A stretch of 27,120 nucleotides of DNA from an uncultured Candidatus Saccharibacteria bacterium (GCA_964548575.1 CAZJQW010000003.1:1-27120), one strand, 5' to 3'; counted from the first letter of the stretch, positions 10,852 through 26,740 are shown. Notes: a model not told the origin generated them from the sequence alone. A program made the numbers and translations.

Positions 10852-10897
10852 GAAACAGAAAATAGAAAGCAGAAAATGGAAAATGGAAAAGGAAAAT
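10852..10897 (+). repeat. Degenerate heptamer tract (RGAAARY), about 6 units
   Basis: From 10857: AGAAAAT AGAAAGC AGAAAAT GGAAAAT GGAAAA GGAAAAT, just after the rplU stop. Confidence 0.85.
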
Positions 10898-10910
10898 GGG
10901 GCGAACAGCC

Positions 10911-11077
10911 TTATTTTTGTATATTAGAAATCTCGTTTGTTTTACGGATGAAAGCTTGCAGAAGTTTCTGAATACTTTGAATCTGAGGTTTAATTTGCTC
11001 AAAATCTTTACTGTCTATGTATTTAATGTCGCGTGCGATTATCGATCTTTAAGCTCGGTAAATCCTGTCTTATGCAT
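10911..11077 (-). pseudogene. Internally deleted and frameshifted four-helix-bundle (23S-rRNA-IVP/bAvd-like) gene remnant
   Basis: ATG 11077 gives MHKTGFTELKDR*. A second frame (11042-10911) gives IIARDIKYIDSKDFEQIKPQIQSIQKLLQAFIRKTNEISNIQK*. These resemble the N-terminal F-x-(D/E)-L-K and C-terminal I-A-x-D-L-x-Y-I...L-x-x-(F/L)-I-R segments of that family as I recall it; roughly 65-70 central codons would be missing. Confidence 0.6.
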
Positions 11078-11114
11078 TTATCTGTTTTCTGCTTTCCATT
11101 TTCCACTTTCCACT
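11078..11114 (-). repeat. Degenerate heptamer tract (RGAAARY), inverted relative to 10852-10897
   Basis: Minus strand after the dnaB stop: AGT GGAAAGT GGAAAAT GGAAAGC AGAAAAC AGATAA, then the ATG of the remnant. Confidence 0.85.
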
Positions 11115-12485
11115 CTAAAATCCACCAAAGTCCGCCTTCTCCATACTCATGAATGTGGTCTTCTTGCTGTCGAAGAATAGCTTGACCATGCCTGTTGGAC
11201 CGTTTCTGTGCTTCTCGATGAGGATCTCGGCTTCTTCTTTGCGGCCACCTTGTTCCATATCAGATTCGCGGTGAATGAACATGACGACGTCAGCGTCCTG
11301 CTCGATGGATCCAGAGTCTCGAAGGTCGGAGAGTCTAGGCTTGCCACCACGCTGTTCGACTGCACGAGAGAGCTGTGAGAGAGCGAGGACGGGTACTTCG
11401 AGCTCGCGGGCGAGATTCTTGAGTGAACGAGAGATCTCCGTGACCTGTTGGACCATGTTGTCGCTACTCCTAGTTTGCGTTGGAACCATGAGCTGGAGGT
11501 AATCGACGATGATGAGGCCAAGACCTTTTTCATTTTTGAGCCTTCTCGCGACTGCGCGCATTTTCAAGATATTGTTTCCAGGTTGATCGTCTATATAGAT
11601 AGGAGCTTCGGAGAGCTTGGCGATGGATTCGCCGATCTTCTTGAAATCATCTCCCACTGATAGATTGTGACCAGTGCGGATTTTCCAAGAGTCGACTTGA
11701 GATTCGGCGGCGAGCATGCGGTCTACGAGCTGTTGAGAACTCATTTCGAGAGAGAAGATGGCGACAGGAACTTTGAAGTTCACTGCAGCTTTGCGTGCGA
11801 TGTCTAGGGCGAGGGAAGTCTTACCCATAGAAGGACGTGCGGCGAGGATGATGAGGTCGGACTTTTGGAAGCCGGCGAGCTTGCTGTCGAGCTCGGGGAA
11901 ACCGGTGTGCACTCCTCGAATCTCATTGGTATTCGCTGCAAGGTATTCGAGGCGTTCCCATGCTCCGGACAGTGTATCTTTGAGAGCGATGAACTTGTGT
12001 GAGCCAGTCTTGTTCGTCACTGCATAGAGAGACTTCTCCGCTTTCTCGAGAATGCTGTGAAGCTCTTCCTCTTCTTCGTAGCCAAGGTTGCTTATGTTTT
12101 CCGCAGCTCGGAGAAGCTCTCGCATGATGTGCTTTTTCTGAATGATCTCAGCGTAGTGGACAGCATTCGTCGATGAGGGAACCATCTGAATGAGCTCCGT
12201 GAGCATAGTCATCCCTCCGATCTGCTCTAGCTGTTCTTTTTCTTTGAGACGCGCGGAAACTGTGAGGACGTCGATAGGGGAGCTCTTTGAATGAAGTTCG
12301 AACAAGCACTCCCAAATGATCTTGTGCTGACCCGAGTAGAAAGACTCGGAATTTATGATGTCCATGATATCGTGCATCACATCACCTCTCATCATGACCG
12401 ATCCGAGAAGAGCTTTTTCCGCATCCAGGCTGTGTGGCGGGATCTTGAGATCTTTGGTCTTGAAATAGGGTGAAGCGGTATTCAT
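11115..12485 (-). CDS. dnaB: Replicative DNA helicase
   Basis: PPHSLDAEKALLG, Walker A AARPSMGKT, FSLEMS, IVDYLQLM, SQLSRAVEQR, LSDLRDSGSIEQDAD and KHRNGPTG. Normal length, no intein. Start taken at ATG 12485. Confidence 0.98.
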   Translation of the reverse strand: MNTASPYFKTKDLKIPPHSLDAEKALLGSVMMRGDVMHDIMDIINSESFYSGQHKIIWECLFELHSKSSPIDVLTVSARLKEKEQLEQIGGMTMLTELIQMVPSSTNAVHYAEIIQKKHIMRELLRAAENISNLGYEEEEELHSILEKAEKSLYAVTNKTGSHKFIALKDTLSGAWERLEYLAANTNEIRGVHTGFPELDSKLAGFQKSDLIILAARPSMGKTSLALDIARKAAVNFKVPVAIFSLEMSSQQLVDRMLAAESQVDSWKIRTGHNLSVGDDFKKIGESIAKLSEAPIYIDDQPGNNILKMRAVARRLKNEKGLGLIIVDYLQLMVPTQTRSSDNMVQQVTEISRSLKNLARELEVPVLALSQLSRAVEQRGGKPRLSDLRDSGSIEQDADVVMFIHRESDMEQGGRKEEAEILIEKHRNGPTGMVKLFFDSKKTTFMSMEKADFGGF

Positions 12486-12504
12486 GTAAATTATTGGGAC
12501 ATCT

Positions 12505-12513
12505 ATTCTATCA
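12505..12513 (-). promoter_or_regulatory. Extended -10 (TGaTAGAAT) of dnaB
   Basis: Ends 19 nt before ATG 12485. Confidence 0.55.
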
Positions 12514-24415: not shown

Positions 24416-24460
24416 TTGTGCATAATAATACGGCTCAACCAAGCCACAATAACATTGTTT

Positions 24461-24495
24461 TTGCACGTGCAATCCAGCTTGCTTTCTGATATACT
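24461..24495 (+). promoter_or_regulatory. gyrB promoter: extended -10 TGaTATACT with a 12-bp palindrome over the -35 region
   Basis: TTGCACGTGCAA at 24461-72, TGATATACT at 24487-95 and ATG at 24528. Confidence 0.5.
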
Positions 24496-24527
24496 TGGAG
24501 CAACAAAAGCAGTACGCTTTTATTTTT

Positions 24528-26642
24528 ATGGCAGATAAATCAAAAGACAAAAAGAACGCATCTGGTGGCTATGATGCGTCAGCGATTACGGTTCTTGAGG
24601 GCTTGGAGCCAGTGCGAAAGCGTCCCGGAATGTATATTGGCACGACTGGGCCAGATGGTTTGCACCACCTCATTACAGAGATATTCGATAACTCCCGAGA
24701 CGAGGCCATGGGAGGCTTTGCAAATGATATAGAGATCGCTTTGCTTCCAGGCAACCGCGTCCGAGTCGTGGACAACGGCCGAGGCATACCTGTAGACATC
24801 CACAAGCAGACCAAGGTATCAGCTTTGGAAACCATTATGACGGTGCTACATGCCGGAGGAAAGTTCGGCGGCGAAGGATATAAAGTCTCAGGAGGTTTGC
24901 ACGGCGTAGGAGCCTCCGTTGTGAACGCACTCTCTTCTAACATGAAGGTCTTGGTCCACAAGAGCGATGGCTCGGTGAAGAACGGTATATACATGCAGGA
25001 ATACAAGAGAGGAAAGTCTCAATCCAAAGTAAAAGTGGTTGGTTCAACAAAAAATCATGGAACTATCGTCATCTTTGAACCAGATCCAGAGATATTCAAG
25101 GAAGGCATCAAGTTCGAATGGAACAGGATAGTGAATCATATGAGGCAACAGGCTTATCTCGTTCGAGGACTTCGCATCAGCCTTATAGACGCTCGTGAGC
25201 AGATACCTAGTTTCGGCGACGATGATGAGCTTTTCTATATTCGCGAGACTGGAGTCGAAGCTCCATCGTATACTTTTTTCTTTGAAGGAGGACTCATATC
25301 TCTCATCAGATTCTCAAATCAGCTTTTAAAGCCCGCTCACAAGAATATTTTCTATGTTGAACGCAAGGTAGAAGGGGTCGAGTCTATCGAAGTCGCTTTG
25401 CAATACGCCAATGATGTATCTTCTCGAGTTCTTGGATTTGCCAACAACATACATACGCCAGAGGGAGGAACGCATATCACAGGATTCAAAACCGCTCTCA
25501 CTCGATCACTCAATGCCTACGCCAAGAACAACAATCTAACAAAAAACGGCGAGGACACTTTCACTGGCGATGACGCCCTCGAGGGCCTCACAGCAGTCAT
25601 ATCCGTAAAGCTCCGCGAGATCCAGTTCGAAGGCCAGACAAAAGCCAAACTCGGCAGTATGGAGGCTCAGAGCGCGGTCGCAACCGTATTTGGAGACTCG
25701 TTCGCCGCTTTTCTCGAGGAGAATCCCGATGATGCGAGGTCTATCGTCAACAAATGTATTTTGGCCATGAAGGCTAGGAAAGCTGCCAAGGCTGCAAAGG
25801 ATTCTGTTTTGCGCAAAGGAGCTCTGGAGGGTATGACTCTTCCAGGCAAGCTTGCTGATTGCCAATCTGGCGATCCAAGTGAATCTGAGCTCTTCATAGT
25901 GGAGGGAGACTCGGCCGGAGGCACAGCCAAGCAGGGAAGAGACAGGACTATTCAAGCCATATTGCCCCTCCGAGGAAAGATTTTGAATATAGAAAGGGCT
26001 AGATTGGACAGGATGCTCGGATCTGAGCAGATCAAAAATCTAGTTTTGGCTTTTGGAACTGCTATCGGGGATACATTCGATATAGAGAAGCTCCGCTATC
26101 ACAAGATCATTCTGGCGACAGATGCCGACGTCGACGGAGCCCATATCCGCACTCTTATTTTGACTTTGCTCTATAGGTATTTCAAGCCTTTGATAGACAA
26201 TGGATATGTCTATATCGCCCAGCCACCTCTATATAAAGTGAAAAGGGGCAAAGAAGTGATGTATTTCTATTCTGAAGAAGAAAAAGTCAAAGCTCTCGGT
26301 AAGGACTTTGATGCAAAAGAGATCGAAGAATCTGATGAGTCCAGAGATGAGCTTCTCGAAGCCGCTGGTGCTCCAAAGGATGAGAATGAAGAAGAGTCTG
26401 AAGTAGAGGTCAAAGGCAAGTCTCCCAAAGTTTCTATTCAGCGCTACAAAGGTTTGGGCGAGATGAATTCTGAAGAGCTCTGGGATACGACGATGGATCC
26501 TAGCAAGCGCATCCTGAAGCAGGTCACTATCGAAGATGCAACTGATGCTGACAAAGTATTCGATATGCTCATGGGAGACGATGTCCCTTCGAGGAAGTCC
26601 TTCATCCAGTCCAATGCCAAGCTGGCGACTTTGGATATCTAA
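24528..26642 (+). CDS. gyrB: DNA gyrase subunit B
   Basis: [67 protein letters not shown] and [10 protein letters not shown]. Confidence 0.97.
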
Positions 26643-26647
26643 AGGGC

Positions 26648-26740
26648 GGAAAGTAGAAAGTGGAAAATAGATGTGGAATCGCAGAAGTCATCTGCGATTT
26701 CTATTTTCTATTTTCTATTTTTCGTTTTTCTACTCTTTCT
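26648..26740. repeat. Inverted pair of heptamer tracts enclosing a hairpin
   Basis: Plus strand GGAAAGT AGAAAGT GGAAAAT (26648-68). Minus strand after the hsp20 stop: AGAAAGAGT AGAAAAAC GAAAAAT AGAAAAT AGAAAAT. Confidence 0.8.
26677..26699. terminator. Bidirectional hairpin between gyrB and hsp20
   Basis: AATCGCAGA-agtca-TCTGCGATT, a 9-bp perfect stem, T-rich downstream on the plus strand. Confidence 0.7.

Follow-up and report, generated by a model that had tools for sequence, protein, structure and literature searches.

Tandem heptamer tracts at gene ends of a Candidatus Saccharibacteria genome as probable arms of hairpin cassettes resembling rRNA intervening sequences

A stretch of 27,120 nucleotides from an uncultured Candidatus Saccharibacteria bacterium (GCA_964548575.1, CAZJQW010000003.1:1-27120), hereafter termed the window, contains five tracts of degenerate 7-nt units of the form RGAAARY, each located at the end of a gene. 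The tracts are probably (with a probability of about 0.6) the terminal arms of small hairpin cassettes resembling the intervening sequences (IVSs) of rRNA genes, and of versions of such cassettes that are devoid of an open reading frame (ORF). A complete cassette consists of a G/purine-rich array of 7-nt units, an ORF encoding a four-helix bundle (4HB) protein of the PF05635 family (S23p, bAvd-like), and a complementary C/pyrimidine-rich array. This architecture is that published for the 23S rRNA IVS of Coxiella burnetii, here found between protein-coding genes.

The window and its heptamer tracts

The window has a G+C content of 44.6% and carries housekeeping genes of a small-genome bacterium: parB, topA, dprA, serS, dus, recR, rplU, dnaB, pyrD, a two-component pair, rpsB, tsf, pheS/pheT, gyrB and hsp20. 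Gene identities are borne out by Pfam. Nearly identical sequence is present in metagenomes from wastewater, sludge and freshwater sediment, and one wastewater run covers the organism at about 18×. The tracts and the features associated with them are the following.

10852–10897, plus strand: tract 1, purine-rich heptamer array abutting the rplU stop codon (TAA ending at 10851); read on the minus strand, the pyrimidine (3′) arm of a decayed 4HB cassette
10911–11048, minus strand: 4HB gene remnant, the last ~45 codons and the stop codon, with the N-terminal ~70 positions absent
11078–11114, minus strand: tract 2, purine-rich heptamer array abutting the dnaB stop codon (TAG, 11115–11117); 5′ arm of the same cassette
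17288–17370, plus strand: tract 3, the longest array, with ~12 degenerate units, 6 nt past the stop codon of a 124-aa ORF
17371–17396, no strand assigned: GC-rich hairpin between tract 3 and the stop codon of a 122-aa ORF (17405)
26642–26729, plus strand: long hairpin without ORF between gyrB and hsp20
26648–26671, plus strand: tract 4, beginning after the gyrB stop codon (TAA ending at 26642) and pairing with tract 5
26700–26741, minus strand: tract 5, purine-rich heptamers, the first triplet of which is the hsp20 stop codon itself (TAG, 26739–26741)

All five tracts had been listed in a preliminary description of the window, and all are present at the coordinates given there. Lone RGAAARY heptamers are barely enriched, with 63 occurrences in the window compared to 50.8 ± 6.7 in dinucleotide shuffles. 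In-register neighbours spaced by 7 nt number 11, when 0.03 are expected from the shuffles, and in-register triples number 6, when none is found in the shuffles, which is far beyond chance. A four-unit pattern with at most three mismatches gave 14 matches, all inside the five tracts, and none in 100 shuffles. A period of 7 was called at all five by Tandem Repeats Finder, and no sixth period-7 array was found in the window with a unit-agnostic detector that yields 0.15 hits per window in shuffles. The tracts consist of head-to-tail 7-nt units in non-coding DNA, as do heptanucleotide simple repeats.

The distance between the start of the tract and the stop codon is 0–6 nt in all five cases, in agreement with the limit of about 6 nt originally given. 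All three tract sites are convergent intergenic regions. Tracts 1 and 2 form an inverted repeat, as do tracts 4 and 5; in either pair, a purine arm precedes a pyrimidine arm. The purine strand is indeed found on the sense strand of the gene that has just ended; since the purine-then-pyrimidine order is identical on both strands, however, an inverted pair provides one independent observation of this polarity per site, and not two.

With Rfam at the gathering threshold, the sole match in the window is a tRNA-Thr; nothing was matched at the tracts and no rRNA gene was found. No reverse-transcriptase domain is encoded among the genes of the window. The metatranscriptomes of the study from which the genome originates yielded a single 200-nt contig, without transcript ends.

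A probable decayed cassette between rplU and dnaB

Tracts 1 and 2 flank the remnant of a 4HB gene, the translation of which (minus strand, 10911–11048) is RSIIARDIKYIDSKDFEQIKPQIQSIQKLLQAFIRKTNEISNIQK, ending at the stop codon. The profile matches of the remnant cover positions 73–108 of 109. They were obtained with the last helix of PF05635 (23S rRNA intervening-sequence protein; E = 0.003, 18.3 bits for a curated cut-off of 33.8) and with TIGR02436 ("four helix bundle protein"; E = 2e-4, 21.4 bits for a curated cut-off of 24). Over 38 aa, the remnant shares 45% identity with the C-terminal end of the intact 4HB protein of locus L123 (E = 6e-11; L-numbers are labels of relative and comparison loci), and it is the sole match in the window to a hidden Markov model of the 4HB family built from other loci (E = 2e-5). 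A phmmer search of the ORFs of the loci with the 45-aa remnant gave no match; the 4HB family set was bootstrapped from a BLAST cluster instead of a phmmer seed.

Within the two tracts, 10858–10883 pairs with 11078–11103 with 85% complementarity over a distance of 194 nt, and the arms pair in the minimum-energy RNA folds of both strands of 10846–11120. Tract 2 supplies heptamers upstream of the remnant on the minus strand, as in the Coxiella IVS. As read from the sequence, the cassette ORF lacks its N-terminal two thirds, and 10852–11114 is assigned with high confidence as a decayed member of the 4HB hairpin cassette class.

No insertion or deletion was found at tracts 1 and 2 among four metagenomes with nearly identical sequence. 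When the window was compared over 10400–11600 with a 19.8-kb wastewater contig, four single-base differences were observed, two of them in tract 1 (10884 and 10892).

The dnaB–recR spacer in relatives

A scan for relatives of DnaB returned 80 loci with 59–83% identity. In most of them, the dnaB–recR spacer is 3–30 nt long and without repeats. In the closest relative (L123, 83%), this spacer is occupied by an intact 4HB gene encoding 127 aa, and L201 and L202–L207 likewise have an intact 4HB gene there. The order in these relatives is dnaB, 4HB and recR, all co-directional, then rplU on the opposite strand. Purine-rich heptamers fill the interval from the dnaB stop codon to the 4HB start codon, and complementary heptamers fill that from the 4HB stop codon to the recR start codon (L123, L204, L202 and L201). 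In L204, the upstream arm is GAGCTGG GAGATAA GAGTTAA GAA and the downstream arm is CTCTTAT CTCCTAC CTCTTAA CTCTACC. The arms of L123 are made of GAGCTAR and CTCTTAG, a unit sequence that differs from the RGAAARY of the window.

In L177/L178, L168 and L171, the dnaB spacer contains the arms and a short loop, with no ORF. As the relatives without a cassette lack arrays at this spacer, the arrays come and go with the cassette and are not a pre-existing target. The earlier proposal that the tracts might be the target sites of a cassette finds no support in this result, nor in two identical cassette copies in one contig that share their arms (see below).

The gene order of the window (9857–12518) differs from that of L202–L207 in that rplU sits between the 4HB remnant and recR. 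The start codons of recR and rplU are 20 nt apart in the window, and the breakpoints of the rearrangement coincide with arrays. In L123, an array of the arm family (CTCTTAC / CTCTTAG / CTCCTAG; 5567–5619) is present in frame within recR itself, between the zinc-finger CxxC pairs, where it amounts to ~15 extra residues.

4HB genes elsewhere and their flanking arrays

The architecture of arms and ORF recurs across phyla with an invariant period of 7, polarised arms and joint duplication of the arms and the ORF. The 4HB protein of L123 has 3367 homologues at E ≤ 1e-5, with PF05635 and PF22296 (bAvd), which are labelled "four helix bundle protein" of Patescibacteria in the sources. The cassette layout was found at ~26 independent intact 4HB genes from Patescibacteria, Bacteroidota, Acidobacteriota, Desulfobacterota, Marinimicrobia and Cyanobacteria. 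Independent places of insertion include the intervals between two ABC-transporter permease genes (livH–livM-type), between pilC and a pilin gene, and between two large genes. In each case, the spacers are filled by arrays.

The excess of identity at lag 7 in the flanks of 20 distinct 4HB genes is 0.16 upstream and 0.15 downstream, compared to −0.01 for 1500 control ORFs (p = 6e-11 and 1e-7), and 19 of the 20 genes exceed the control 95th percentile on at least one measure. Among the genome loci retrieved by the RGAAARY scan described below, all eight 4HB ORFs, from five lineages, are flanked by period-7 arrays, with units AAAGCAG, AAAATAG, GGATAAT, CCAATCC, ATCAATG, TTGAAGA and GTTTTCG. Arrays were likewise found at six of six plasmid genes annotated as 4HB or "S23 ribosomal protein" in Nostoc, Calothrix, Pseudanabaena, Geminocystis and Riemerella; on a plasmid of Nostoc edaphicum, the arms are (GGGAGTA)7 and (TCCCTAC)5. 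Autocorrelation over lags of 3–12 peaked at exactly 7 in all 31 arms.

In all 16 cassettes compared, the two arms, once trimmed, are complementary to each other, with duplex energies of −16 to −75 kcal/mol, and 15 of the 16 have more G than C in the upstream arm and more C than G in the downstream arm. The duplex energy between 60-nt flanks of 4HB genes is not significantly different from that of control ORFs (p = 0.22), as these windows are too wide; trimmed arms do pair. The preliminary description had offered the arms of a cassette as one possible nature of the tracts, and this is the proposal supported by the evidence, since tracts 1 and 2 flank a decayed 4HB gene and complementary arrays flank intact 4HB genes, orthologous and unrelated, in every lineage sampled.

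One contig has two sites that encode an identical 128-aa 4HB protein. The block with 100% DNA identity comprises the inner units of the upstream GATTTAR array, the ORF and the whole downstream array, and the number of upstream units is ~4 at one site and ~12 at the other. As the duplicated block spans the arms, the arms move together with the ORF, and unit number is quick to change. The duplicated gene was seen in two assemblies (L224/L225 and L222/L228). Locus L227 has the upstream neighbour of one duplicate site and the downstream neighbour of the other, and is either a recombinant or an assembly collapse.

Two other neighbourhoods are of note. On plasmid pPg_01 of Pseudanabaena galeata (L242, 45868–47021), a 4HB gene lies between cas6 and cas4, with ~17 AAAAGCT units upstream, an inverted CTTTTAG block farther up, and ~10 AAAAGCC units downstream. 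In L232–L236 (about 3001–5784), a PIF1-like helicase gene is flanked by two different 4HB genes, which are 2.4 kb from each other, next to a gene for a PD-(D/E)XK (Cas4-like) nuclease.

The hairpin between gyrB and hsp20

Tracts 4 and 5 are paired through 26647–26671 and 26700–26724, which are 84% complementary. Their stem has ~39 pairs and encloses a short GC hairpin (26675–26701). The RNA fold of 26640–26750 on the plus strand is a continuous ~39-bp stem of −45.3 kcal/mol (z-score = −8.45), and the fold of the site on the minus strand has an energy of −28.5 kcal/mol (z-score = −5.6). The core 26675–26701, followed by TATTTTCTAT on the plus strand, was flagged as terminator-like. In assemblies of nearly identical strains, contigs break at tracts 4 and 5. 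The arms, the unit family and their order fit those of a cassette, and the site resembles the ORF-less forms found after dnaB in relatives. It is considered with moderate confidence that 26642–26741 is an ORF-less cassette.

The lone array at 17288–17370

The stop codon (TGA) of the 124-aa ORF ends at 17281 and tract 3 begins at 17288, where GTAACTA forms the first two units. The tract has no convincing partner arm, and 17288–17370 does not form a terminal inverted repeat. It is unpaired in the RNA folds of both strands. On the minus strand, tract 3 is the pyrimidine/U-rich tail behind the hairpin that lies 3′ of the 122-aa ORF, so that hairpin 17371–17396 is followed by AUUUUUCU... In this predicted structure, the hairpin and the U-rich strand opposite the array together resemble a terminator that would serve the 122-aa ORF. 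The site (17288–17396) is assigned, with lower confidence, as a lone cassette arm beside a terminator-like hairpin.

The flanking ORFs, 17405–17773 on the minus strand (122 aa) and 16907–17281 on the plus strand (124 aa), belong to no Pfam or NCBIfam family. The 122-aa ORF is preceded by about two purine units (ATAGAAAGGAAAA) immediately before the ATG and followed by the long pyrimidine array past the terminator-like hairpin, which gives the locus a loose likeness to a cassette with another cargo. This ORF was rejected as an alternative cassette cargo, as it has just about two upstream purine units and the fold is not significant. The same layout, with a lone purine array at a stop codon, a short GC hairpin and a T run, was seen in the relatives L131 (350–410), L134 (8122–8180) and L171 (1486–1540 and 5375–5440).

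Arrays away from 4HB genes

A scan for four RGAAARY units in one genome per species returned at least 120 loci, and 129 arrays were among the matches listed. These are from Bacteroidota, Patescibacteria, Acidobacteriota, Desulfobacterota, Omnitrophota, Cyanobacteria, Melainabacteria, Planctomycetota, Spirochaetota and other phyla. An ORF of at least 100 aa stops 0–10 nt before the 5′ edge of the purine strand in 20 of the 129 listed arrays, and the mirror arrangement was never found; the orientation relative to neighbouring genes, noticed first in the window, thus extends beyond it. A partner arm is present downstream of 19 and upstream of 4 of 101 listed arrays. Among 27 arrays of any unit in the loci selected with dnaB, a stop codon abuts the G-rich strand in 11 cases and the C-rich strand in 6, two of the latter being the stop codons of 4HB genes themselves.

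Arrays of one genome often belong to one unit family even at separate sites, examples being RGAAARY in the window, GAGCTAR (four places in L123) and a GAAAAC type in L010; several genomes have more than one family. Other genomes have perfect arrays, among them some of the (GGAAAGT)n type, and the perfect arrays reach 18 or more units. In Methylotuvimicrobium buryatense 5G (L039, 5225–5440), two convergent genes are each directly followed by a G-rich array in their own sense, (AGAAAGC)4 on one strand and (GTTAGCG)18 on the other, which are not complementary.

Discussion

Short tandemly repeated repetitive (STRR) heptanucleotide sequences have been known since 1990 and, to our knowledge, the explanations for the excess of heptanucleotides are limited to generic slippage or case-by-case ideas. 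PF05635 proteins are among the commonest small proteins without an assigned function in Bacteroidota, Cyanobacteria and bacteria of the Candidate Phyla Radiation (CPR), and we know of them just as passengers of rRNA IVSs and as relatives of Avd, a protein of diversity-generating retroelements (DGRs). These two old loose ends may be one problem. The link between 4HB genes and arrays, present in every phylum sampled, may help to explain why 7-base repeats are common in bacteria.

The closest known systems are the rRNA IVSs that bear an S23p gene. That of Coxiella burnetii is 428 nt long, with a 28-bp terminal stem and a decaying S23p ORF, and has two to three tandem GACAGAT heptamers just before the start codon, the number of which depends on the strain; RNase III cleaves its stem at the first repeat (PMC4990558). 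The 4HB family has been recorded in rRNA insertions of CPR bacteria (bioRxiv 10.1101/2024.02.27.582315), and rRNA IVSs without an ORF exist (PMC4990558; bioRxiv 10.1101/2024.02.27.582315). The elements described here share with the rRNA IVSs of Coxiella, Leptospira and CPR bacteria the PF05635 family of the ORF and its position in the loop of a terminal-inverted-repeat stem; in the window, the match of the ORF remnant to this family is below the curated cut-offs, and the other two sites have no ORF. With the Coxiella IVS, they also share purine-rich tandem heptamers upstream of the start codon, an ORF prone to decay and ORF-less versions. Unlike rRNA IVSs, they are located in the spacers of protein genes, starting at stop codons, and their whole arm is a heptamer array, reaching 12 units here and exceeding 15 elsewhere. 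They are considered closest to the S23p-bearing rRNA IVSs and, since they lie outside any rRNA gene, are not counted as members.

The cassettes have features in common with short non-autonomous elements such as miniature inverted-repeat transposable elements (MITEs) and repetitive extragenic palindromic (REP) sequences: they include intergenic hairpins that are more numerous than the ORF-bearing form and can occupy unrelated sites of one genome. Unlike these, they have no known transposase partner, no target-site duplication was seen, and what the copies have in common is a unit family and a period, and not a sequence that can be aligned. The bAvd protein of DGRs has a homologous four-helix bundle fold and family, with PF22296 found beside the PF05635 hits; unlike in DGRs, no reverse transcriptase and no pair of template and variable repeats is next to any cassette examined.

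Several observations weigh against the assignment of the tracts as cassette arms. Roughly three quarters of the arrays have no detectable partner arm. About 30 arrays were found for 3 4HB genes in the 529 kb of dnaB-selected loci, a ratio of ~10:1, and about 3 of the 129 listed RGAAARY arrays directly flank a 4HB gene. Because most arrays are without a partner, the assignment is direct for 10852–11114 and indirect for the other two sites, and it is weakest for 17288–17370. As the two arrays of L039 are not complementary, part of the polarity is independent of hairpin pairing. Of the two strands of 10852–11114, the rplU-sense one forms a more stable stem than the 4HB-sense one, and pairing of the arms favours the ORF-sense RNA over the antisense RNA in 10 cassettes versus 5, which is not significant (p = 0.32). 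One Desulfobacterales genome has a pyrimidine-rich unit upstream of the ORF. Finally, the cassette encodes no recognisable recombinase that would explain its mobility.

The tracts could instead be ordinary, functionless heptanucleotide microsatellites of the STRR type, born from slippage, with a polarity that reflects the places where they are tolerated and with 4HB genes as coincidental neighbours. According to Mrazek 2007, as reported in PMC4679880 and PMC4692102, heptanucleotides are the most over-represented simple repeat in many bacteria and are mostly intergenic. The arrays described to date include the cyanobacterial STRR, GGGAATC in Xanthomonas, GGGGAYT in Nostoc and TAACTGA in Beggiatoaceae, and have been attributed to slippage, G-quadruplexes, or translational or unknown regulators (PMC4692102, PMC4679880). 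Like these repeats, the tracts are made of tandem 7-nt units, are intergenic and have a strand bias relative to neighbouring genes. Inverted pairs in some convergent regions and adjoining unit families are also common to both (PMC4692102, PMC4679880), and the taxa overlap in Cyanobacteria, Bacteroidota and Gammaproteobacteria. TAACTGA repeats are mostly right upstream of start codons, whereas the arrays considered here begin at stop codons. No link with 4HB genes is drawn in PMC4692102 and PMC4679880, no paper linking PF05635/4HB genes outside rRNA to heptamer repeats was found in the literature searched, and neither was a report of RGAAARY units.

The preliminary description had set the tracts apart from slippage microsatellites, which is half right. 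The perfect arrays of other genomes and the varying number of units, be it between cassette copies (4 versus ~12) or between Coxiella strains, imply that slippage-like dynamics are part of the picture; the presence in tract 1 of two of the four single-base differences and the many arrays without a nearby 4HB gene would also suit microsatellites. Slippage alone does not account for flanks that are complementary to each other, and coincidental neighbours are hard to reconcile with the period-7 flanks of 19 of 20 4HB genes (~5% expected per measure for control ORFs), then 8 of 8 and 6 of 6. Gene-less relatives without arrays at the same spacer, the 20 to 0 ratio of stop-abutting arrays by strand and the constant copy number at tracts 1 and 2 among nearly identical strains point in the same direction. 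This explanation is deemed unlikely.

It is about as improbable that the tracts are the A-rich and U-rich flanks of bidirectional intrinsic terminators, which would have a U tract in both directions and of which termination would be the whole function. An A-rich tract, a GC hairpin and a U-rich tract are indeed arranged between convergent genes at 26642–26741 and 17288–17410, convergent pairs are found at three of three sites, and both the core 26675–26701 with its TATTTTCTAT and the hairpin 17371–17396 with AUUUUUCU on the minus strand have the look of terminators, as have the GC hairpin and T run behind several solo arrays of L131, L134 and L171. Unlike bidirectional terminators, however, the elements have ~39-bp stems or, between the arms of tracts 1 and 2, a 194-nt interior (10898–11077) that is no terminator; the terminator pattern is missing at 10852–11114. 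In relatives, the arms with their 7-nt periodicity lie inside operons, between genes that need to be co-expressed (dnaB–recR, livH–livM-type, pilC–pilin). A canonical hairpin with a T tract was found downstream of 1 of 119 RGAAARY arrays, equal to the upstream control, thus without enrichment, and the period of 7 is left unexplained.

The least probable of these alternatives, and a decidedly doubtful one, is that the arrays are candidate sites for a protein that binds single-stranded RNA or DNA in units of 7 nt (the pentameric 4HB protein, or a cold-shock or S1-domain protein), pairing being secondary. The homologue bAvd is known to bind a reverse transcriptase as well as nucleic acid. That all 31 arms have a period of exactly 7 although their unit sequences vary with the cassette, and that separate sites of one genome often have a unit family in common, is in keeping with such a reader, as is the report that CspB binds one heptamer per protein (PMC4679880). 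The sole solved relative of the 4HB family found by sequence is PDB 2GSC (E = 1e-20); the family is a homopentameric toroid (PDB 2GSC; PMC4990558, for the Xanthomonas homologue of S23p), which makes it the obvious candidate for reading 7-nt units. That a ring-shaped 4HB protein reads the arrays is a speculation. The 4HB gene of the window is decayed and no intact copy is present in the 27 kb, several genomes have multiple unit families, and 4HB proteins ~62–66% identical to that of L123 sit between quite different units, which argues against simple sequence-specific recognition.

Other candidates were rejected: CRISPR, as the arrays have no spacers; a DGR, as no reverse transcriptase is encoded in the window or beside the cassettes of L202–L241; a TRAP/HutP array of NAG triplets, as the arrays follow stop codons instead of forming 5′ leaders and have no conserved triplet (GAGCTAR, GATTTAR, GGGAGTA and others); and a CsrA sponge, as GGA is missing from AGAAAAT-type units. 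A Rho-utilisation site on the pyrimidine arm, acting against antisense read-through, was considered attractive and was dropped.

If the tracts are cassette arms, the following scheme can be proposed. The arms would fill the spacer from the upstream stop codon onward, and in the transcript they would pair into 25–40-bp stems beginning at the stop codon. RNase III probably cuts these stems; such excision is proven for rRNA IVSs and is presumed here by analogy. Between convergent genes, the stem may form or protect the 3′ ends of both transcripts, and as modelled the hairpins 26642–26729 and 17371–17396 are plausible termination or stability signals. The upstream arm is plausibly G/purine-rich because it also serves as the region where ribosomes bind ahead of the ORF, examples of which may be GGAGCACAGAGGTAAGAAT-ATG in L208 and the Shine-Dalgarno-like AGAAGA region in Coxiella. 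Arrays would lengthen and shorten by slippage as long as pairing persists.

A wider proposal, which should be regarded as tentative and on balance doubtful, is that 4HB genes flanked by inverted arms of period 7 make up a single class of mobile mRNA/rRNA intervening sequences that spans phyla, that the pentameric ring reads or maintains the register, and that ORF-less or one-arm versions are the main source of the bacterial heptanucleotide excess, including the cyanobacterial STRR. The conjunction of a period of 7 with a ring-shaped pentamer encoded inside the cassette raises the most interesting question. The system offers a testable handle, with a defined protein, a nucleic-acid partner, an RNA stem that RNase III may cut, and an insertion polymorphism with filled, ORF-less and empty states. 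For annotation, arrays at gene ends would be cassette arms or remnants and not noise, and short 4HB fragments between arrays would be pseudogenes.

Other repeats in the window

Two repeats with other periods are located within coding sequences. A 21-nt periodic repeat (24084–24193) lies inside a coiled-coil ORF (23936–24415) with weak DUF16/EzrA-like hits. At 18134–18166, inside a glycosyl hydrolase family 3 gene, a 15-nt unit (TAATCCAGTCACTGC) is repeated perfectly in 2.2 copies.

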